NCBI GenBank assembly: GCA_951406725.2
Contig: OX597832.1
Location: 11,780,001-11,844,000, forward strand
Direction: 5' to 3'
DNA: 64,000 bases
Source of the DNA: Octopus vulgaris
Lineage: Eukaryota
The notes beneath the pieces are model-generated. The model searched no databases and was not told where the DNA came from. It saw only the letters and a list, made by a program, of their open reading frames with translations. Every line of letters starts with the position of its first letter. The first letter of the stretch is position 1. The translations under genes and the position numbers were made by a program. This document shows, piece by piece, positions 4,633 through 61,337 of the stretch.

Positions 4633-5080
4633 TAAGGTGAGCTGACAGAATGGTTACCAGGCTAGATGAAATGCGTAGCGGTAATTCACCTGTCGAGCTG
4701 ACAGAAACATTAGCACGCCGGGCGAAATGCTTAGCGATATTTCGTCTGCGTTACCTTGTGAGTTGAAATTCCGCCGAGGTCGACTTTGCCTTTCATCCTT
4801 TCGGGGTCGATAAATTAAGTACCAGTTACGCACTGGGGTCGATGTAATCGACTTAATACCTATGTCTGTCCTTGTTTGTCCCCTCTGTGTTTAGCCCCTT
4901 GTGGGTAATAAAGAAATAGGTAATTCACCTGTCTTTACATTCTTAGCGCAAATTATGCCGAGGTCGACTTTATCTTTTATTCTTTCGGGGTCAGTGAAGT
5001 AGGCTCACGTTGATCACTGGAACCAATCTAATCGACTTACCCCACCTAAGAAATTGCTGGACATTTTCCCAAATTGGAAT
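4633..5080 (+). mobile_element. Old SINE of lineage C (C'), split by a younger family C copy
   Basis: The head GGTGAGCTGACAGAATGGTTA...GCGGTAATTCACCTGTC resumes at 4919 with GGTAATTCACCTGTCTTTACATTC...GCCGAGGTCGACTTT...TTTCGGGGTC. Confidence 0.85.
4695..4918 (+). mobile_element. Young SINE, family C (copy 1)
   Basis: tRNA-like head, conserved GAGGTCGACTTTGCCTTTCATCCTTTCGGGGTCGATAAATTAAGTACCAG block, and tail ...GTGGGTAATAAAGAAATA. A perfect 15-bp TSD, GGTAATTCACCTGTC, lies at 4680-4694 and 4919-4933. Confidence 0.95.
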
Positions 5081-15595: not shown

Positions 15596-15893
15596 TTTAT
15601 CTTCCCATACGGCCTTACACTCAACGGGGAAACCTACATCAACTGCCTGGAGGAAGTAGTTCTACCCTGGATGGCTGCTGGAAGACCTTATATCTAGCAA
15701 CAGGACTCTGCACCATGTCTTACTAGCAGGAGAACCCAGTCATGTCTGTCAGACAGTTTCTGTGACCATATCACTCCTAACATCTGGCCATCTAACTTCC
15801 CAAACTGCAAACCCCCTTTATTATTATGTGTGGGGCGCAGTTGAACGGGAGACCAACATAATTCGTTGTAACACCGAAAATGAGCTGAAGGCA
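15596..15893 (+). pseudogene. maT-type (DD37D) Tc1/mariner transposase fragment
   Basis: Translation is FIFPYGLTLNGETYINCLEEVVLPWMAAGRPYI*QQDSAPCLTSRRTQSCLSDSFCDHITPNIWPSNFPNCKPP(fs)YYVWGAVERETN..CNTENELKA. The spacing from QQD to the (D)YYVW position fits 37 residues; the third D itself is disrupted. Confidence 0.85.
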
Positions 15894-16298
15894 CAGCTTG
15901 CACCTCATAGAGTACCTGTATAACGAAATCCAAAGAAGGGTAAATGACATCCGTCCAATGCCGACAACTGCGACACAACTCGGTACAAGTTTTAACAGAG
16001 TGTGGGCTGTTATCGTCATGCCCTTCATGAATCGTTTAGTGCACTCACTGTGCAGAAGATGTCAGGCGGTAATCAACGCTAACGGTGCTCACACGAGATA
16101 TTGGGTTCATGACTTTGGATACAGGACACTCAGCCATCATGTGACACCATGTGACGTCAAACATGTTTCAGGATATGACGTGTTATCATTAGAAAAGAAT
16201 GGTTTCTTAATTAGCACTCTTCAATCAATGCTATGGCAGTCTGTTAATAAAACTGTTTCAACTCAGTATGTGTGCGACGTTTCTTTTGTGGTCCAGTA
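15894..16298 (+). pseudogene. Tc1-type (DD34E) transposase C-terminus with 3' UTR and right TIR
   Basis: LHLIEYLYNEIQRRVN..RVWAVI.MPFMNRLVHSLCRRCQAVINANGAHTRY corresponds to the LNPIEHLW...SMxRRCxAVIxAxGGxTxY motif. The element ends in GCGACGTTTCTTTTGTGGTCCAGTA abutting (TA)n. Confidence 0.85.
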
Positions 16299-16320
16299 TA
16301 TATATATATATATATATATG

Positions 16321-16352
<32 letters not shown>

Positions 16353-16404
16353 TGTATGTATGTATTCGTAAACACATACATATATATATTTATACGCGCA
16401 CACA

Positions 16405-16664: not shown

Positions 16665-16897
16665 TATTTCTTTATTGTCGACAAGGGGCTAAACATAGAG
16701 GGGACAAACAAGGACAGACAAACGGATTAAGTCGATTACATTGACCCCAGTGCGTAACTGGTACATAATTTATAGACCTGGAAAGGATGAAAGGCAAAGT
16801 CGACCTCGGCGGAATTTGAACTCAGAACGTAGCGGCAGACGAAATACCGCAAAACATTTCGCCTGGCGTGCTAACAAATCTGCCAGCTCGCCGCCTT
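16665..16897 (-). mobile_element. Young SINE, family C (copy 2)
   Basis: Full reverse-complement match to copy 1 and copy 4. Its tail abuts the head region of the older copy. Confidence 0.95.
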
Positions 16898-17530
16898 ATA
16901 CGCTCAAAAATATTAACTATATTTTGTCTACTTCTTTATGCGTTTTAGATTAAACCATGAAATGCAAAACGTGTGTGTATGTGTATGTGCGCGCGTGTTT
17001 CTGTATATTATGTGTGTGTTTGTGTAGTGAACAAGCCGTCAAAATGAAATTTTATTTTTCCTATTGGAAAAAAACTTTCTTTACAATTAACAAAAATGTC
17101 CTCACTTTTGACGCTGCGAAAATACTACGTTTATAATAATTTACTACTGACAATCTCTGTTTCGACTTTCAAGTGGTATATACTAAGTGCATTCAGGAAT
17201 TTTCTTGCTTTCCTGTCTAGACTTGCTAATTCAGTTAACTTCCAGTTGAGATTATTATAACTATGACTTATTAGTGTAAATGTTAGCGTATTGATACCTA
17301 TTATCTTATTTACTGCATTTATCTCTGTCTTAAGTTTTAATATTACAATTCTTTACCTAGGCGCGATGCCAGAGAAAGTAGTATTACAATGTGTCTATAA
17401 TTTGACGTCCTTAACTTTTCTTTCATTCGTGAGCATTGTACTATGTCTACTCAATTGATTTATTAGTATCTGTAGCTCTGTTCGGTCTAATTCTCTTAGG
17501 TGGCATTTAATAAACAAAAGTCTAAGTCTT

Positions 17531-17901
17531 TCTCTCTTTACTTGTTTCAGTCATTTTGACTGCGGCCATGCTGGAGCACCACCTTTAATCGAGCAACTCG
17601 ACCCCGGGACTTATTCTTTTGTAAGCCCAGTACTTATTCTATCGGTCTCTTTTGCCGAACCGCTAAGTAACGGGGACGTAAACACACCAGCATCGGTTGT
17701 CAAGCAATGCTGGGAGACAAACACAGACACGCATATACATAAATATATACATATATACGACGGGATTCTTTCAGTTTCCGTCTACCAAATCCAGTCACAA
17801 GGCTTTGGTTGGCCCGAGGCAATAGTAGAAGACACTTGCCCAAGGTGCACGCAGTGGTACTGAACCCGGAACCATGTGGTTGTTTGACAAGCTACTTACC
17901 A
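17531..17901 (-). mobile_element. SINE family D
   Basis: Near full-length reverse complement of 20565-20986. Confidence 0.92.
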
Positions 17902-19526
17902 TTGTTTTATTTTATATTCGTTTTCCTCTTTTCAGAGTTGCCTTGCCGCATTTTTCCTAAATCAAGTTTCATATTGTTTTGCAAAAAAATTCCGTGCGCT
18001 GGGTATAAAAGTGTTTCCATTTGTTTTGTATCTTCAATATACGTCCAAGAGTATCCATATTCGTTCGTACTCCCGTAGCATTTGCTTCTGATTCCTGCTT
18101 AAGTTAGCAAGCTAATTGATAACGCCAGGAACAAAAAAATATATTTGGAATAACATCCCTTTCTGATTTATTTTTTTGTGCGTGTGTTATTTTTTAAGTA
18201 TCATCTGTCTTGTTGTCTAGTTTCCCGCGATGGTTAAAGCGTTGCAGTTGTCACTCTCAGTACGCTCTTCCTTGGCAATCCTTTTGCTTTGCATATTTTT
18301 CCACCGAATACCAGGTTTTTACTGTTGTTAACAATGTATTGATTTCTAAATTTATTTTGAATTATATTTGAAAAAATCGTTCGGAGTGTAAGCCGAACCC
18401 ATTGCTTTGTTCAAAGGAACATTCTAGTTTATTACAACAACTGGAAGTTAGAGAGTTATCGAGAAACTTTCCTGTATAATTTTGTGATTTCATGTACTGT
18501 TGGTTTAAGTATTTATTTCTGTAGTATTTGCTGGTCTTGTTCTTTCAAGGTTTTTTTCTTTTTCATTGTACCCTTTAGCGGTTGGTGTTATCAAGTTATC
18601 CAAATACATAGAAAACAGCTGTAAGATATTTCCAGCGACAAAGAGATAAAGCATAATACGGATGGAACAAATGTATTTCTATCTTGTTCAAAGCTATTTC
18701 CTTCCAGTCATAAATACTCCAACGTCATACATGCTGCTAGAAAATATACACAGATACATCTTTCACTAGACATAGACCAGTGGATGAAAAATAAAATGAT
18801 ACCACAGCAGAAAAAAGTAGACACCATTAAATATGGGAGCTATAAAGGGTGTTACAATTTATTTCGTGGTGCTGTGAACAGAACTTTATAATGATAACAG
18901 TATAAGTAAAGATAGTAATATTATTGTTACCTATGAGCATAACAATAACATTGTTAGTAAATGCAGAATTTACCACTTCCGATCAGCATATTCCATCAGT
19001 GACATAAAAATGGCCAATGCTTCTGTTGCTGACATTCGGCATTGTTCTGTAGTAGTTGCAAACTAAAAACTAGAATAAAAGCTGACAATAAACAACGTGA
19101 TAAAATATGACTGTCTGAAGTAAGTCCAATGAATTGAAGGTGTAAGTTTAAGAGGTGTTCTTTAAAGACAAACATAGATTGCATGATACTATCTACAATG
19201 TCCGAGAGGTGTTTAAATAAACAATGTATCAGTATAAAAGAAAGAAAGGACTAACAGATAATAAATAACTGCAAGAGTAAATTAAAATGTAGACTATGTA
19301 GCTAACAGCTAAATACTGAACTTCAAAGGAGTACTGGAAACGAATACACCAGCGCTCATAGGTCAACCACTTTGAACAAACCTTAAAGCATACCACGTAT
19401 TGACAATTTTTTTTCTCAAAATGTATGCCATATATACAGTAAATATGATTATATGACAAGTGAATGCACGAACCTGACATGAACGGGTCTGTAGAAGCCA
19501 TCTTGTTCAATGCAGCAGCAGCAAGC

Positions 19527-19860: not shown

Positions 19861-20507
19861 CTTGCGAGCTCTGGAACGAAGACCATTCACTCAACAGCAT
19901 CAAGTCACTGCATCTGTAGATATTCAAAACAATACCTGCAATTCTTTCAAAATGTTAAATAAATCTTGTCTATGTAGAGCATTTCCCGGATGAATACGAA
20001 ATATTATACGACACAAACACTGACAATATATACTTAGAGACATACTAATATCATATAAACGCTCCATATGCACCTACCCACTAAAGGTCATCTGCACGTA
20101 CTTCAGATATCACGGAACACAACTAATATTACATCGTACAAAGACTATACTGATTACATTTATGAAAACACATTGTACGACCTTCTTTATGCTACGTGGA
20201 ATTACTTGTAAAGAATGAAATAGTTTGTTCATTGACGTAATATTGGCGTCAGTATTCAAGCTACTAAATTTAATTATCTCCCTTTATTTAGCTAGACATC
20301 TATACAAGCATTTATATATAATTGTACATTTACGAACGTCGCGAAGAATAATTGAGTGAAAATCTTTGTAATATCTCTTCAAACCACATGTAAAACATTT
20401 CGAGTATTTAAATGTAACTGTAGAACATGTATACCTGGTTATACACGACAGTCTATAGGGAGAGTATCTCTATACCGTATATGTTTAATGGGTATATATA
20501 TATATAT

Positions 20508-20555
<48 letters not shown>

Positions 20556-20564
20556 GTATATATT

Positions 20565-20724
20565 GGCTGTGTGGTAAGTAGCTTGCTTACGAACCACATG
20601 GTTCCGGGTTCAGTCCCACTGCGTGGCACCTTGCGCAAGTGTCTTCTACTATAGCCTCGGGCCGACCAAAGCCTTGTGAATGGATTTGGTAGACGGAAAC
20701 TGAAAGAAGCCTGTCGTATATATG

Positions 20725-20760
<36 letters not shown>

Positions 20761-20986
20761 GGTGTATGTTTGTGTGTCTTTGTTTGTCCCCCCCCAACAT
20801 CGCTTGACAACCGATGCTGGTGTGTTTATCTCCCCGTCACTTAGCGGTTCGGCAAAAGAGACCGATAGAATAAGTACTGGGCTTACAAAGAATAAATCTC
20901 GGCGTCGATTTGCTCGACTAAAGGCGGTGCTCCAGCTTCGCCGCTGTCAAATGACTGAAACAAGTAAAAGAGTAAGAGTAAAGAGT
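20565..20986 (+). mobile_element. SINE family D (CORE-like domain, internal microsatellite, (AAGAGT)n-like tail) inserted in (TA)n
   Basis: GGCTGTGTGGTAAGTAGCTTGC..GGTTCAGTCCC, GGCACCTTGCGCAAGTGTCTTCTACT, internal (TA)n(TG)n and tail GACTGAAACAAGTAAAAGAGT. Several copies occur in the window. Confidence 0.95.
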
Positions 20987-21319
20987 ATATATATATATAT
21001 ATATGAACTAGAGCCGATGAGAATGTCAAATAACTCTATTTTAGAAATGCTGAAGGCAATATGTTTAGCGCGGAAAAATCACTTAAAATTACTCAGAGAT
21101 AAAATGTGGCACAATCTTATACATCTATACTCATCCCCTTTTTTTGGTCTTATCTTTATATATTACCGCTTAGAGCACACATAAGATAACCACCTACATG
21201 GATAGCGATAAATATACATACATAGCGTTACAACTGGTTTCCTCTCGTTGAGCTGTGTACATGTACCTACATAGCCTTTTAACTGTATGAATACATCAAG
21301 CAATATCTCTTTGTCTATT

Positions 21320-21759: not shown

Positions 21760-23219
21760 GCGTGTGTGTGTGTGTGTGAATATATTCATGTACATAATTA
21801 TGTGTGTGTGTATGAATATATGTATAACGAAACTGACGTAAATTCACTTGCACATTCACATAAATCTAAGATATATTTAGGCACATACATTTCTTCCCAG
21901 ATGGTTTCTTGTTTATATAATAGTTTGCGAAGAAAGTAGAAAGACACAAGAAAAGCATGACATGCAACGTTTCACAGATTAATGCGAAAACGTATTTTAT
22001 TTTTAGTTAGAGAAAAGAATCCTTTTTGGTATGTTAGTGGAATTTCTTTGCATTCAGAGCAAAGAGAAACGAAATATGCTATCTACCTTACGTTGAATGT
22101 ACAAATGACGAAAACAGACATAACCTCGATATCTCAGTACGAGAAAATGATAGAACACTATTAGATTTTTTAGAAAATTCTCGGAGAAAATATCTGAGCT
22201 CACGCTCTTTCATGCTTTTGATGTTTCACTTGTTCTTTGTACGTTGTGTTTGTAGTTCTTGTGCTGTGTTTTAAGGTGGAGTACTAATGGCTTATTTATA
22301 CAAGTTTGTGGTATTATACGTAAAGGGTGAATTCTATGATGTATGGATGTCTATTTCTTAACAGAAAGCTGCCTGTATGTTCCGTAACAAATATAAATGT
22401 AAATAATTTACGTTATTTCCACCTTTACAGTGCTGCTTTACTCCCATCAAAGGAGATATTTTAACGACTGAATGATCACTCAAAATTTTACAGACATGTA
22501 GTATGTCACATAATCTTTCGTCCCATTTAGTATCACCACTTCGCCTTTCAGCTCCTTTACCGAAGCCCAATCTGCTTCAACCATCCAGACCATATCTCCG
22601 AGTTGAGATGAAAGAAGCTGGTATGTTGGTGTAACCAATCTGTGTTGCAGTAACCTATAGGTTGTGGCTGCAAGGTCATATGAGTTACCTTTGCTCCTCT
22701 GAAAAAGCTATATTATCAAAATAGTTCTCAGAAACTAGTGTATCAACAACAGTAATATATATTGTATCATTTCCGATATGAACGCATTTTACAGGACGAT
22801 ATATCTGTTCTTTCCAGATCTACATGATATTTGCCATCATAATGTGATAAAAAAGATTGTTTTCTAGTGGTACATACATAATGAGCAAGTTCTTCAGAAT
22901 TACGTGTCATTTAGTCAAACCTTTATGGTATATCTGTTATTTAATTATTCAGTGATTTGTTGTGTAATGACGATGAATTTTATATGCTCCAAATGATGAA
23001 CAGAATAACTTCTGGAGATGCAAAGAATTTGCAACTCAAATGCGCTTGTTTACACAGCATCACGCTTGTCCTAAGTAGCTTGTAAAGTGTTGACTAAATC
23101 AATTCAACCATAAATTAAATATGTAGGCGCTCGTTCAAATCCCTGAAATGCTACAACTATGGCCTTCCCTTTATCATGAGAATAATTCAGTAAATTATTG
23201 TTAGAAAGCTGATAATACC

Positions 23220-23449
23220 TATTTCTTTATTACCCACAAGGGGCTAAACACAGAGGGGACAAACAAGGACAGACATAGGTATTAAGTTGATTACATCGAC
23301 CCCGGTGCGTAACTGGTACTTAATTTATCGACCCCGAAAGGATGAAAGGCAAAGTCGACCTCGGCGGAATTCGAACTCACAACGTAACGCAGACGAGATA
23401 CCGCTAAGCATTTCGCCCGGCGTGCTAACGTTTCTGCCAGCTCGCCGCC
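23220..23449 (-). mobile_element. Young SINE, family C (copy 3), full length
   Basis: A perfect 13-bp TSD, AGCTGATAATACC, lies at 23207-23219 and 23450-23462. Confidence 0.96.
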
Positions 23450-26189
23450 AGCTGATAATACCGATTAACTTATAGTTATTCATCACAAATTATTAACATT
23501 AGTTATTATTCGGTTAAAAAAACAAAGGCAGTAATCATGTTTGGTCGCTGCTATTGTCCAGACGCAATCAGGGTGTTCGTTTACCCATGAAGTTTTGTCT
23601 GCTGTGTGTTTATGTAGTCTTCTCTGAATCTATTTTCCTCCAGAACAAATATGGTCTTCCGTTTACCAGTATAGAAACACTACAATCTCAATACGCAATC
23701 ATTATAATCAACAAATAATCATTATATCCTTACAAAGTGAAATGTAAGATAATCAATAAAGCAATTTGCTATTGACCTTCTATTTGTTTGAAATGAATAT
23801 CCAGTTGTGTACTGGTCGTGTATGTCCAGTCGTGTATAATTCATATACAGTTTTTCCACCAACGCTGGCACTATTTCATTCGTATCAGTTACTGGCCAAA
23901 TTCACTCAACTTGTCGGCAATCATTGGAACAAGCTTCATAACATTGCTACTGGCGATGTAGGAATGTACAGCATGTTAAATATGTAATATACTGCAGTTT
24001 TTCGGTCCTGTGTCGGCTTCTATGGTGAGCATTCCATCGTTAACTGTATGTAAGGTAGCATAATATAATTTTAACGTTCGAATGGTATCACATCTATATT
24101 AGTCACTAGTCAAAATTTCCGGTCAATACAAGACCACCATTAATCAACTAGATGGCATAGTTTTCTAGATTTTCTTAAAGATAATGTGAAACAGAACAGG
24201 ACAGACGAACATCATCTACACTAAAAACACAAATTCCAAGACAATTATCTGCCCAAGTTAAAGTGTATGTTTGATCATATCCACTATTAAAATCTAATCA
24301 ATCACCAAATTCTTCAAAGCTGCTAAATCATGGCTAGAATATTTTGTTGCTGATTAATCTGGAACAATATAATGTATTTCACTAACATTTTCGAGAAACG
24401 ATTCTGAGAAAGGAAGTTCATAACATTTTCGGAAGCAGTTGGCTATTGCCAGGGTCATTAATAATGTTATATAGCCCTAAGTCAATCTAGATCAGGTAAG
24501 CTTATCACAAATCAGAGCCATGCTATGTCCATTTTAACACTTCTCGTTTCCTCTGGGACTAAACTAACCATTTTGTCGCACTTCCCTAGGTTTAAAGAAA
24601 ATTAGATTAATACTTCTAGTTAATGGAGCGATAGTATACAAGTTTACTCAATGACAAGTGATTGTTTATATTTCTGTCAAAAATATCTGCTTCAAATTTA
24701 TGTAAATGCAGATTTAATGGTCTGAGATAATTATCTCAAACGTAGGTGGCAAAATTCAGCGATATTTCAGGTTTGATTCCAAGAGCCCGTTTATGCACAA
24801 GAAGAAAAATTTATATTCCAAGGGATTGCTGAGGAATAGTTTTGGCTTTTTATTAGACAATGTCGGTCAGAAAAAAATAAATAGTGAAAAATAAGTACAT
24901 TTCGTTATACAATCAACTTATGTTCTATTATATTCAATGTGATAAAAAGTTTATAGGGTTTCAAATTGAGAAAACCAGTTAAGATCTATCTACCATTTCT
25001 TTATCGAGAATTTTACACTCATACAAACGCACACCTACGAACACTGTCATTCTCACATACCCATGTACACATATATATATAAGGATATAATGATACATGC
25101 ACACATTCAGACGCATGCATACATACACACACTCACAAACATACACACGTACACACACCAGCACATGCATATTCGCGAACACACATATCATTATACATAC
25201 TGATGTACCCGCATCCATATAGTTATGGGCCTACGTGTTTTTTATGTATATTTAAACACCTCAGTGAGAAAAAGACAGAAAAGTGAGAGTGCTCGATACA
25301 GAATATAGAGTTAGTTATGCGTACACGCACACAAACACACACACACACACTTATGTATATTTACATATAAATATGGAAGCACACATGAGTTCTTACTGAA
25401 TTTAGAATACACTTGATAACAGTGCATGCGTACACATTGTAAATCAAACTCTTAATTTAAGAATCTAGTCCTTTTAGCTATTACACCGAAATGATTTTCA
25501 CCATTTTCCACACGATGTATGAACTAAAAATTTGTTAGCGTTCGAGGAAGGGGAAACCGCAGCAATAACAAAAGATATACGCGGTGTTTTTCATTGTGTA
25601 ATATATATGTAGTGCCTCCGGCTTACGTGATTAACAGAGAAAATAGCGCATCGATGTTTTAAATGGCACAGAACAGTGGTAGTTTGTGTTTAGAATGAAC
25701 TGGTTTTCGATAATCGATGACGGCTTTGGGTTAAACTTAGCAACAGTGTTATTACTACTCGTAGTATTATTATATTTACTATGATATTTTCTTGTTTTAT
25801 GCATGTAATTATTGTTGCTGCTGCTGCTGCTGTGTTCTGTATTCTTTGTTTTGTTTATGCCTTATTTCCATTTTTATTCTTTTTCATTTTCTAAGATGTT
25901 GTTCTCCTTCATATTGCTGTTGGTGTTGTTACTGTTGTTATTGTTGTTTCATGTGCTGCTTAGATCTCTTACCTTCACTGACTGACAGACAAACCTCTCA
26001 GAGTCTTCTCAAAAGATTAAGGAAAATCAGTCTTGTTCTCCTTCTAACATGATCGATATTACATTCACCTCCTCCCCATTGCTCCGCCTTCAATTCTCTA
26101 CCTAAATACACACTACACAAAACACATACTCAAAGATTGTCTCCATCACTCTCACTTTCTCACCCTCTCGCTCTCTCTCTTTCTCTTTC

Positions 26190-36292: not shown

Positions 36293-36618
<326 letters not shown>

Positions 36619-36849
36619 GTATGAGTGTGTAATTATGCGTTATAGAATATCTGAAATTGCGTTCAATTATACATGTGCGTGTGTGGTGTGTCTATCCTCT
36701 TTATGGTGGTATATAAATTGTGTATAAAATATTTTATGTACTTGATTAAGTATATATTCTTCTTGCAATAGAAAAACACGAATTAAATTTACAAACATAC
36801 ATACACGCACATGCACTTATCCTTTGTATAAACTTCTATCTATCTATCG

Positions 36850-45833: not shown

Positions 45834-46012
45834 TATTTCTTTATTAGTCACACAGGGCTGCACACAGACAGGACAGTAGAGCTTTTCTTTTGGGGGAGAA
45901 AAAAATGTGGGGTAGGTTTTCGATCGAAAAAGATTGTAAAAGAGGGGGAAAAAAAGAAAAAACAAAACAAAAAAAGAAAAACAACTTATTAGTCATCAGT
46001 ATTCACACGATC
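45834..46012 (-). mobile_element. 3' end of a retroelement sharing the family C terminus (candidate partner LINE 3' UTR)
   Basis: The minus strand ends TGTCCTGTCTGTGTGCAGCCCTGTGTGACTAATAAAGAAATA, versus family C TGTCCCCTCTGTGTTTAGCCCCTTGTGGGTAATAAAGAAATA. The upstream sequence is unrelated to the SINE. Confidence 0.55.
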
Positions 46013-47058: not shown

Positions 47059-47950
47059 GGATATATATATATATATATATATATACATACATGATCTGTG
47101 GACCTGAGTATCGGCAGTTCGTAAACTTCAAGTAAGCAACCATTCACCAAAATATTATTGAACAGGTAGTAATTTCTGCACAAGAAAGTTAATGCAATGC
47201 GTCACAGAAATACATAGGTGTGTGGTTAATGCATTTCAGTGCAGCTGGTGCAATGTAATTGCATCTGTGTATGGAAATAGTAGCCTGTGTTTTGTCAACG
47301 TTGATATAAATCAGTGTTTCGTTAGACTACAGTGCTGAATTCAACGTTCTTAAACGACACTTGATATAAACTCCTGAGCTAAGCCTCAGACCACAAATTT
47401 TCTTTCGACTTCCTGAATCAGCACACTTAAATCTAAGATATGCTTCTGATCACGTGTTATATTTCGACGATTAAACAGCAGAATTTCCCTCCATGTTAAA
47501 CACATTCAAACATCTCAACGGTTAGCGGTGCTTACCTTATTGGAACGATTTACATCCAATTGTAAATCGTTCTGCAAGAGTTAAGACTATGCAACAACAA
47601 GTACATGCATCTTATTAGAAGATTCCAGAACATCTACTTTTGTGATAATTCAACCAAAAATATTTCGCCTGCTTCATAAAATTTCTCTTCTTAGGAAGAG
47701 AAAAAAAATCCTGATTTATATTTAGATAACATCTAAATATATCATGATCAGGAATTTGAATTAAAGATTAAAGTTTATGCTTCCGTATTTATTCCTGAAA
47801 GTGAAATAGGTTTTGATAAGATCAGTGAAATAGAGTTCTAACCGCGAGGTGTTATTTGTCTTTGTTTTCGCTTGTTTTGTTTTCCCCAGATAAACGCAAA
47901 AAATAATAGGTTTACATATATACACACACACAAGCATACATGTGTACATG

Positions 47951-48007
<57 letters not shown>

Positions 48008-48045
48008 TTATCTATATGTCTATGTATATATACACATACATATAA

Positions 48046-48076
<31 letters not shown>

Positions 48077-48151
48077 CACACGCATATATATATATATATA
48101 TACATATATATATTCACGCACATATACATATATTCATATACATTCACACAC

Positions 48152-48196
<45 letters not shown>

Positions 48197-48235
48197 TATA
48201 GATACTTATATATTTACATACATGCATACATATAC

Positions 48236-48267
<32 letters not shown>

Positions 48268-48355
48268 ACATACGTATTTACATACATGCATATAGATACA
48301 TATATATATACATACATATTTACATACATCCAAACACACACATGCACACAAATAT

Positions 48356-48406
<51 letters not shown>

Positions 48407-50490: not shown

Positions 50491-50626
50491 TTGTTGTTTA
50501 TTCATTAGGTTGATGAGAAAAAATAGCATCGTACATAACCTTCGCGTAGACTTTTATACTATAGTGATGGAGGTAAATAGAAAGAAACTATGAGTCATTG
50601 ATTTCCACAATAGAAAGGTGTGTTAG

Positions 50627-50859
50627 AAGGCGGCGAGCTGACTGAAACGTTAGCACGCCGGGCGAAATGCTTAGCAGTATTTCGTCTGCCGTTACGTTAT
50701 GAGTTCAAATTCCGCCGAGGTCGACTTTGCCTTTCATCTTTTCGGGGTCGATAAATTAAGTACCAGTTACGCACTGGGTTTGATGTAGTCGACTTAATCC
50801 GTTTGTTTCTCCTTGTTTGTCCCCTCTATGTTTAGCCCCTTCTAGTCAATAGAGAAATA
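50627..50859 (+). mobile_element. Young SINE, family C (copy 4), full length
   Basis: 15-bp TSD with 2 mismatches: AGAAAGGTGTGTTAG (50612-50626) / AGAAACGTGTGGTAG (50860-50874). Confidence 0.95.
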
Positions 50860-51629
50860 AGAAACGTGTGGTAGTATTCTCAGACATGAAGGGTTGTTCG
50901 ACAACTTACGCTATTGCTGACTCCGTCACAATACAAAAGTTCAAGGTGGGGGTATCTAAGCGGGACATACATTACCGATATTACTTAAGAACAAGTACAA
51001 TCAGAGGGGTATCCAAATCATTTCTCTCTCCCTACATTATCCATGAAACTAAGGTAGAGGACAGTGATAAATTGTGAGATCGAACTGTCAATCATGAATG
51101 TGAGTTTAACTTTGTAACAACATAGCAACTCCTACATTTGGAGAAGAAAAGTTAATTCATCCAAGCTCTACTATTTTCGATTTAACGTTTACACCTCTTG
51201 CTTAAAACAATGGGAAGCCAACACGTTAACTTGCCTACTAGCTGTTAAATTTATTGGGAAGATGACAGTTAACTAGCCAGTTTTGGACACTGGAAAATAC
51301 TAGTACTTGTGATATATTATGGACTGCTGACGCATTTGGTTGTTTTCGTGTGTACTATCAACAAGTTCATCAAAACATCTCGGCACTACAAAGCATTAAA
51401 ATTCAAACGACATCATATACTCACACCAACATATAAACAAACCACGAAGACATAAACATTGACAACAATAACTTTATCATATGTGCCAAGCTTTTCATAT
51501 TTTCATGTCAAATCTCATATCAATATTTTGACTGTCTTTGTTTCTTGAAACGTAAAAACAAAAGTTGCAAAAAAACGCACTAAGAAAAAGAAACCAATTT
51601 GTATAAAACAAAGAAATCAAAGTTGTTTC

Positions 51630-56941: not shown

Positions 56942-56978
<37 letters not shown>

Positions 56979-57024
56979 TGGATATACATGTATGCAAACC
57001 AAAATGTGTCTGTGAATACATACA

Positions 57025-58575
<1,551 letters not shown>

Positions 58576-59124
58576 TGTCATGTAACTGAGTATGAGGGTG
58601 TGTATATATAGATCTCGTATTTATATATGTGTATGTATGTATAGTTGTATAGGTATCTATATATTCATACCGACATACATATATAACACATACAAACGTG
58701 TGTATATGTTTTGGAGTTTACATGTGTTTCTAGTTATTTGTTGTTACGAGCGTGCAGTTGTGTATACGACAGGAGGTGTGTGCGCGTGTGTAACTGCGTG
58801 CGCACGTGCTCGTATGTGCGTCTATATGCGTCGATTATTATCATTTATTATTCCGGAGAGTGAAATCGATGCTCATAGCATTCTTAGATACAACTACACT
58901 GGAGCATTCCATTAGTGGATTTCAATACTTGAAAGCTTGGTTTTAAAATACTTACCTGTATTACAATTGCATACCTATGTAAACATTACTGGATGCATCT
59001 ATGTTAACAAACACACAGACATTTATACATACACACACTCTCCTTCTCTTTCACGTACACACACACCACACATTTATGTATCTATCTACATTTGTGTGTC
59101 GATATATGTATAGGAATGTATATG

Positions 59125-60240: not shown

Positions 60241-60899
60241 AACATACATAATAAGTGTACAAGCACGTATGAATATCTAAATATTTATTTCTATGCCTAT
60301 GTACCATGTAGCTCGAAGTTAGGTGAATAAAAAGCAAGTAAGTATCAAGGATGTCCAGGTATCAGTGCATTACGGCCGTTTCAAACGGCTCCATTTAATC
60401 GATCAATGAAAAAGTTACGCCAATTTGAAATACACCTCTCTCCTCGGAGCAGATGAACATATAGTTTTCCAACATATAGGATTCACCATTATATTTCTTT
60501 AGCAAACTTTGCATCAGTACTACAGACAAAAATAATTACATTGCTTCTCTTTGCAATTTTTGTGGCTGAATGAATTCAGGGAAAATAATACTTAAATCCT
60601 GCTATAATTTAGAGTGACACAAGAAAGTAATGGGGGTCAATAAGTGTGTATCCGTATATCTGTGTATGGGTTGTTTGTGTTAGACAAAATAACACTTCTC
60701 GTTTTGGTTACAAAGCCTGATGTGTTGTGGTGTGTCGGTAGGGGGAGCTAGCCCATTAGATCTCACCCAATATTTAACAGTTGCTTATTTTATAGACACC
60801 GAAAAGAGGAGGGGACAACGTCTACTTTGCCAAAATTTGAACTTAGAATGTAAAGCCAGAAGAAATGTGGCTAAGCATTTTGGCCTCTGCGCTAACGAT

Positions 60900-61083
60900 T
60901 ATTTCTTTATTGCCCACAAGGGGCTTCACACAGAGGTGAGAAACAAGGTTAGACAAAGGGATGAAGTCAATTACATCGACCCCAGTGCGTAACTGGTACT
61001 TAATTTATCGACCCCGAAATGATGAAAGGCAAAGTCGACCTCGGCAGAATTTGAACTCAGAACGTAACGGCAGACGAAATACC
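60900..61083 (-). mobile_element. Young SINE, family C (copy 5)
   Basis: Runs from the tail TATTTCTTTATTGCCCACAAGGGGC to GGCAGACGAAATACC, where copy 6 begins. Confidence 0.92.
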
Positions 61084-61310
61084 TATTTCTTTACTACCAA
61101 CAAGGGGCTAAACATAGAGGGGACAAAGAAGGACAGACAAACGGGTTAAGTCGATTATATCGACCCCAGTGCGTAACTGGTACTCATCTAATCGACCCCG
61201 AAAGGAAGAAAGACTAAGTCGACCTCGGCGGAATTTGAATTTAGAATGTAACGGCAGACGAAATACCGCTAAGCAGTTCGCCCGGCGTGCTAACGTATCT
61301 GCCAGCTCAC
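61084..61310 (-). mobile_element. Young SINE, family C (copy 6)
   Basis: Runs from the tail TATTTCTTTACTACCAACAAGGGGC to the head GCCAGCTCAC. Confidence 0.92.
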
Positions 61311-61337
61311 CGCTAACGATTCTGACGCCTTGTGCAA

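Follow-up and report, generated by a model that had tools for sequence, protein, structure and literature searches.

Recurring target words and tail variants of an octopus-type SINE in a 64-kb stretch of Octopus vulgaris DNA

The window analysed here, a stretch of 64,000 nucleotides of Octopus vulgaris DNA (contig OX597832.1, positions 11,780,001 to 11,844,000), carries a short interspersed nuclear element (SINE) of 230 bp that is non-coding, interspersed and present in high copy number, and the sites at which its copies were inserted are not random. With one of these copies (copy 3 below) as the blastn query against the 64-kb window, we found six copies that have the GAAATA tail end and about ten related remnants. 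The target-site duplications vary in sequence and measure 14, 13 and 15 bp for copies 1, 3 and 4. In what follows, positions are those of the window, minus numbers count bases back from the 3' end of the SINE, and the flank is the sequence that follows the tail. The six copies and their duplications are as follows.

4694..4918, plus strand: copy 1, 5'-shortened, T at -13, sitting in an old related SINE (~4636-4992) at position 48 of the latter; flank GGTAATTC (GGTAAT)
4680..4693, plus strand: 5' duplication of copy 1, GGTAATTCACCTGT; its partner at 4919-4932 is perfect over 14 bp
16665..16895, minus strand: copy 2, C at -13; flank AGAAATGT (AGAAAT), then the remnant of a related SINE (16664-16523), which begins at head position 15
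23220..23449, minus strand: copy 3, full length (230 bp), T at -13, of the subfamily with internal TAATACCTAT; flank GGTATTAT (GGTATT)
23207..23219, minus strand: 3' duplication of copy 3, GGTATTATCAGCT, perfect over 13 bp
23450..23462, minus strand: 5' duplication of copy 3, which pairs with 23207..23219
50629..50859, plus strand: copy 4, C at -13, in DNA without a SINE match; flank AGAAACGT (AGAAAC)
50612-50626 and 50860-50874, plus strand: duplication of copy 4, alike in 13 of 15 bp
60900..61083, minus strand: copy 5, C at -13, starting at head position 48; flank ATCGTTAG (ATCGTT), then a related SINE remnant (60899-60775)
61084..61313, minus strand: copy 6, T at -13, GTAGT variant; flank GGTATTTC (GGTATT), joined head-to-tail to copy 5 at GGTATTTCG

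Both target words that follow the window copies are found in the head of the SINE itself, at positions 15 and 48, here given for copy 3.

23425..23435, minus strand: head position 15 (AGAAACGTTAG), where AGAAACG, the word of the 'A' target class, starts in an A-box-like stretch
23394..23402, minus strand: head position 48 (GGTATYTCG), where GGTAT, the word of the 'G' target class, starts

Four of the six copies sit in related SINEs at head sites 15 or 48. As related SINEs cover 3.9% of the window, the binomial probability of four nested copies in six is 3e-5, or 2e-3 at a cover of 11.6%, the genome-wide SINE share given in the part of PMC13282606 used here. Nesting is clearest for copy 1, which is young, has a duplication of 14 bp and entered an old, diverged SINE at position 48 of the latter. 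Copies 3 and 4, in non-SINE DNA, match the class words downstream of their junctions over 6 nt and over 7-8 of 8 nt, respectively; class words have frequencies of about 1e-4 to 6e-4 per position in the window (GGTATT 2.3e-4, AGAAAYGT 1.3e-4). In copies 1, 3 and 4 the class word stands on both sides of the 13-15 bp duplications. Because four of the six copies are nested at two head sites, and because copies 3 and 4 have duplications and mimic words in non-SINE DNA, insertion at class words is real and goes beyond what dimers alone would give. A single conserved target site, as for Tx1- or R1-type retroelements, was not found; the flanks fall into at least three classes when the second sample described below is included.

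Neither copy 2 nor copy 6 has a separate duplication, and copies 5 and 6 are jointly bounded by an 11-bp repeat that overlaps their ends. The stretch 60775-61323 (minus strand) is a triple nest, in which copy 5 lies at head site 15 of a related SINE (3 nt out of register) and copy 6 lies at site 48 of copy 5. The 5' junction between copies 6 and 5 is seamless, and the nest appears as a 184-bp tandem repeat.

As to its identity, the head of the SINE contains what we take to be A- and B-box-like words, with head position 15 presumably within the A-box-like stretch. This tRNA-like look, which is common to several related remnants in the window, was judged by eye; ARAGORN returned 0 genes and Rfam no tRNA match at E values up to 5. 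Read in antisense, the SINE translates into a sequence with 76% identity to an uncharacterized protein of O. bimaculoides (P0001, a spurious open reading frame (ORF)), and its tail is also present in published O. vulgaris contigs. Because of this ORF match and the shared tail, the element can be classed, on sequence likeness, as an octopus-type SINE. Contigs that match the 254-bp stretch 60860-61113 at 80% likeness numbered from 165,035 to 347,445 per run in three runs, in a saturated count that includes related families, and one raw-read run yielded 14 reads. Exact scans of metagenome, viral and prokaryote DNA collections with two patterns gave 0 matches, blastn against phages and plasmids gave no SINE match, the tail motifs were absent from the searched supplement files of PMC13282606, PMC8967140 and PMC9115989, and a full-text literature search for the motifs returned 0 papers.

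The initial annotation had described the six copies accurately. T at -13 is followed by GGTA(T/A)T in three of three copies (1, 3 and 6) and C by AGAAAYGT/ATCGTTAG in three of three (2, 4 and 5); copy 3 indeed has a perfect 13-bp duplication in non-SINE DNA with the flank GGTATT; and TAATACCTAT occurs in copies 1 and 3 only. From these data it had concluded that base -13 is diagnostic of the target and that target choice is inherited with the SINE subfamily. The 3/0/0/3 table, however, gives a Fisher p of 0.10 for a column picked post hoc, with two of its entries (copies 1 and 3) being sisters of 96% identity, and the association of -13 with the flank in the window is weak, that is, not beyond chance. 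Within the shared stretch of 184 bp, seven columns are informative: copies 1 and 3 are set apart by four of them, copies 2, 4 and 6 are split from copies 1, 3 and 5 by those at -59 and -32, and only -13 separates copies 2, 4 and 5 from copies 1, 3 and 6. All four combinations of -32 and -13 are present among the window copies; therefore, -13 does not track the body lineage, and either a module made up of the last 30 nt was exchanged or -13 changed twice. Inheritance of the target with a whole subfamily is not supported by this grouping, and -13 was rejected as a subfamily marker.

A second, independent but biased sample of tails came from Table S2 of PMC3387010, which holds contigs from the central nervous system of O. 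vulgaris, of less than 200 nt; the results below refer to the motif-hit passages within 4.0 million characters of that file, scored by eye. We counted 21 contigs with a recognizable tail and at least six flank bases, and excluded seven hits (three tails with 0-2 flank bases, two fragments without the tail end and two matches without upstream SINE sequence). One of the last two reads C + GGTAAT and, if real, counts against the two-class rule. Base -13 is C in 20 of the 21 tails and T in one. Seventeen flanks start with T, 13 of them with TA (mostly TATA), and three more are AT-type in a shifted register. None of the 20 C tails has an AGAA or ATCG flank and the sole T tail has AGAA, which contradicts the diagnostic role of -13. 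The expectation that C leads to AGAAAY thus failed (0/20 in the contigs vs 3/3 in the window, p=6e-4), and the expectation that T leads to GGTA held for three of three copies in the discovery set and for none of one outside it. Base -13 is most likely a linked passenger marker and not the cause of target choice.

A different base marks the TA-type flanks. Most contig tails have C at -20 and all six window copies have T, and T-starting or TA-run flanks follow 16 of 17 tails with C at -20 vs one of seven with T (the six window copies and one contig; p=3e-4), a comparison that is nearly confounded with the data set and perhaps with the species. A third class with TA-type flanks, marked by C at -20, is thus shown. 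In this wider form, the idea that the target is inherited with a SINE variant plausibly survives: target class goes with the tail variant, in at least three classes, and it is the marker base and the whole-subfamily split that have to be given up. We also searched for proteins from antisense ORFs that would encode base -13 and the flank. This returned 11 proteins, of which ten sequences were examined and one (P0001) was usable; the nine others were too diverged, off the junction or unrelated. P0001 reads F-L-F-L-Y-C, that is, C at -13 with a flank compatible with AGAA and not with GGTA.

The seventh and more diverged tail in the window, which had been left out of the initial annotation, is the following fragment.

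45834..45875, minus strand: tail fragment whose stem differs, with T at -13 and flank TATCTT

It has no duplication within 450 bp. Its stem is similar to that of contig NODE_32079 among the Table S2 passages, in which a TATC repeat follows, and the TATCT-type flank with this different stem may represent a fourth class, a tail lineage tied to TATC repeats. Furthermore, SINE bodies harbour several of the TA-class contig tails in the same passages: TATTT, two bases downstream of site 48, is the site of one and TATACTGG/TACTGG that of two others, so that copies of this class, too, seem to land at TA words within the family.

How could one SINE family come to be inserted at a few recurring words? 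The explanation that we favour, with a confidence that is about evenly balanced, is priming of reverse transcription by RNA beyond the tail, which would pair with the nicked target DNA; each source lineage would then tend to insert at sites like its own 3' flank. RNA polymerase III transcripts would read through past the tail, because TTTT is absent from the body of copy 3 and, in the flanks of the six copies, is first met after 57-413 nt. The protein of a putative partner long interspersed nuclear element (LINE) would then bind a 3' stem-loop, predicted as below, and copying would start at GAAATA.

23232..23244, minus strand: predicted 3' stem-loop (4-bp stem, 5-nt loop), closed by base -13 (23232) as G-C in the C variant or G-U in the T variant

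The z-scores of this stem-loop are only -0.9 to -1.2, which alone is not significant; recognition of a 3' stem-loop by a stringent-type LINE is described in the part of PMC3747384 considered here. The next 5-8 bases of the RNA would select among nicks by pairing with the nicked strand, and daughters would land at sites that resemble the flank of their mother. Sources that stand before very abundant sequence, such as TA runs (6.5% of the window) or the head of the SINE family itself, would have the most targets and hence dominate, and tail bases such as -13 would ride along as passengers. Two observations are consistent with such priming: duplication lengths are alike in both window classes (14, 13 and 15 bp), and -13 and the flank stay together when the body markers -59 and -32 do not, as expected of a 3'-terminal module.

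A more ambitious version would make this a heritable target memory, in which the read-through flank of the source acts as a priming guide of 5-8 nt that is reprogrammed at each new landing; under one LINE enzyme, lineages with a past landing in the promoter region of the family itself or in microsatellites would have turned into self-reinforcing self-targeters. We regard this as a tentative possibility and somewhat doubtful. If true, it would amount to a naturally occurring, RNA-programmed preference for insertion sites in an element that is not autonomous, and the scorable events would number in the hundreds of thousands.

Several observations weigh against priming by the flank. The flank of copy 5 is shifted by 3 nt from the register of the AGAA word. 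In the Table S2 passages, the sole tail with T at -13 has the flank AGAATT and is nested at head position 15, no copy with T and GGTA occurs among the 21 contigs, and one contig combines T at -20 with a TATA flank. The TA flanks of the contigs, where no 5' junction is visible, could belong to the element itself, as a terminal microsatellite, instead of being a target; TA runs follow many contig tails, 5' junctions are few, and the six window copies have no terminal microsatellite. The 3' extension of the RNA and the partner LINE are both putative, and no LINE with this tail was found. Finally, several endonucleases with different preferences would yield much the same table.

In this last alternative, at least two partner LINEs, whose endonucleases (Tx1-, R4/Dong- or RTE-like) differ in specificity, would move different tail variants, and stem-loop bases such as -13 and -20 would choose the partner; it appears rather unlikely to us. 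In its favour, the predicted stem is closed by -13 and has -20 in its loop, Table 1 of PMC13282606 includes RTE, Dong-R4, CR1 and L1-Tx1 among the recently active families of O. vulgaris, and site-specific LINEs of the Tx1 and R1 clades are described in the part of PMC6007223 considered here. However, each of two enzymes would have to happen to favour a word from the head of the SINE, duplications are similarly long from class to class, and both bases at -13 occur with more than one class (C with at least two, T with two). It is also quite unlikely that descent, not targeting, accounts for much of the pattern, with dimers of a full and a shortened SINE moving as units or arising by template jumping and the tail base being inherited together with an apparent flank. 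The lack of individual duplications in copies 2 and 6, and the enclosure of copies 6 and 5 within one outer 11-bp repeat, fit such dimers, whereas copies 1, 3 and 4 have the class word on both sides, two of them (3 and 4) in non-SINE DNA and copy 1 in an old diverged host; template jumping as the sole cause was rejected.

A single, loosely selective endonuclease, with links between tail and flank that reflect chance or an artefact of comparing the window with transcript contigs in small, biased samples, seems improbable as well. The post hoc window table (p=0.10) and the near-confounding of the -20 table with the data set speak for it, and a set of contigs shorter than 200 nt should be enriched in breaks at TA repeats and depleted of young copies that are nested. 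A loose enzyme would nevertheless be very unlikely to hit, time and again, just two head positions and, in unique DNA, mimics of them of 6-8 nt. The remaining candidate lies inside the element.

23275..23284, minus strand: internal TAATACCTAT, the reverse complement of the last three tail bases and first seven flank bases of copy 3

The initial annotation had noted that TAATACCTAT is complementary to the copy 3 junction, which is true over ten nucleotides, although three of the ten pair with the SINE tail and not with the target. Two subfamily-specific substitutions relative to the copy 5 type turn this motif into a 9-10 nt inverted repeat with the tail and GGTATT(A) junction, and it could be thought to act as an RNA guide that pairs with the top strand of the target. 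We consider this extremely improbable and rejected it: copy 6 uses GGTATT without the motif, part of the pairing lies within the SINE's own tail, and the target of copy 1 is mismatched. The helix pairs in a fold of the last 75 nt, and its probability in the fold of the full-length RNA is about 4% for copy 3 and about 0% for copy 1, which further weakens a guide-like reading. Shorter internal complements to their own flanks in copies 4 and 5 (6 and 5 nt) were dropped, being no longer than matches across copies. Correction of quasi-palindromes occurs during copying and would account for the motif; TAATACCTAT probably arose by such templated correction of a near-palindrome. The completed inverted repeat suggests that copies 1 and 3 descend from a source located in front of GGTATT, of which TAATACCTAT would be the trace.

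Priming by the RNA end is known in principle, and what differs here are non-repetitive words of 5-8 nt from the SINE's own head, in several classes within one family. Read-through in SART1 is a parallel. Some Tx1-clade LINEs insert into other repeats or small-RNA genes; they resemble our SINE in being inserted at fixed positions of a multicopy repeat, but their specificity is ascribed to the endonuclease. Site-specific LINEs of this clade are mentioned in the part of PMC6007223 considered here. That part of the paper also describes RNA at or beyond the end of the element that pairs with the cut target and aids priming in the I factor, R1Bm and R2Ol, with overlaps of only 1-2 nt in animals; these elements are autonomous, with a site-specific or defined endonuclease and one target, whereas the octopus SINE is non-autonomous and has several target classes. 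There is also a likeness, in the same source, to the RTE-mobilized AfroSINEs and Au-like SINEs (PMC6007223; Gilbert et al., 2008, cited there), in which variants of the 3' end shift the start of the duplication and RNA-target pairing was proposed; near-identical elephant SINEs with different terminal repeats have different duplication patterns. The AfroSINEs and Au-like SINEs, however, have microsatellite-like 3' ends and overlaps of 1-2 nt, unlike the two classes of non-repetitive words of 5-8 nt from the head of the octopus SINE. SINEs moved by an RTE partner in a tail-dependent way would share their 3' end with an RTE LINE and have a terminal microsatellite that fits the first base of the duplication, with a T stretch about 10 nt upstream. 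RTE-2_OV has a microsatellite 3' untranslated region, according to the portion of PMC9115989 used here.

The share of the enzyme and of the RNA end in target choice is a question for most LINE clades and bears on tools for RNA-templated insertion. Should one LINE serve several tail lineages that differ in their words of 5-8 nt, octopus genomes would amount to a very large natural experiment; if there is only priming by microsatellite tails and a few dimers, the case is an ordinary example of something already described. The arrays of nested and tandem SINEs that trouble repeat libraries of octopus would, in addition, be explained by insertion of the family into two positions of its own head.

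Among known octopus families, OK, OR1 and OR2 are reportedly tRNA-derived SINEs, said to have been described by Ohshima and Okada in 1994, and OK and OR2 contain a CORE domain. The SINE studied here is probably among or near these families, to which it is similar in its octopus origin and tRNA-like head. We compared them by labels only, and the library lengths implied by the RepeatMasker labels in the accessible part of Additional file 9 of PMC9115989 (465, 1092 and 484) exceed its 230 bp. In that part of the file, matches to OR2 begin around 4-23 or around 208-228 of the entry in the library, so that this entry may itself be a dimer or a nest. No target preference of OK, OR1 or OR2 turned up in the literature searches, and no paper on target choice by octopus SINEs turned up in searches at the level of listings and abstract beginnings.

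Some further observations were made in the window. Across 60860-61113, the depth of the copy-6-like vs the copy-5-like tail was 32.3M/3.8M, 28.7M/3.2M and 0.17M/0.86M in runs X1, X2 and X16; the ratio, about 9x in organisms A and B and about 0.2x in E, hints at a lineage-specific burst of one tail variant, a reading that edge effects and forced alignments make unsafe; run X1 may stem from the very sample that gave the window. An open stretch of 160 codons lies at 15889-16368 (plus strand), and its first half, judged by eye, is reminiscent of a Tc1/mariner transposase at its C-terminus. A further interspersed repeat is present twice, at 17459-18075 and 20456-21181, with translations that are alike, and is common in the PMC3387010 contigs covered here. 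Very long TA/TG microsatellite arrays, of up to 1.6 kb, occupy 47906-48403, 56945-58576 and 36304-36622.

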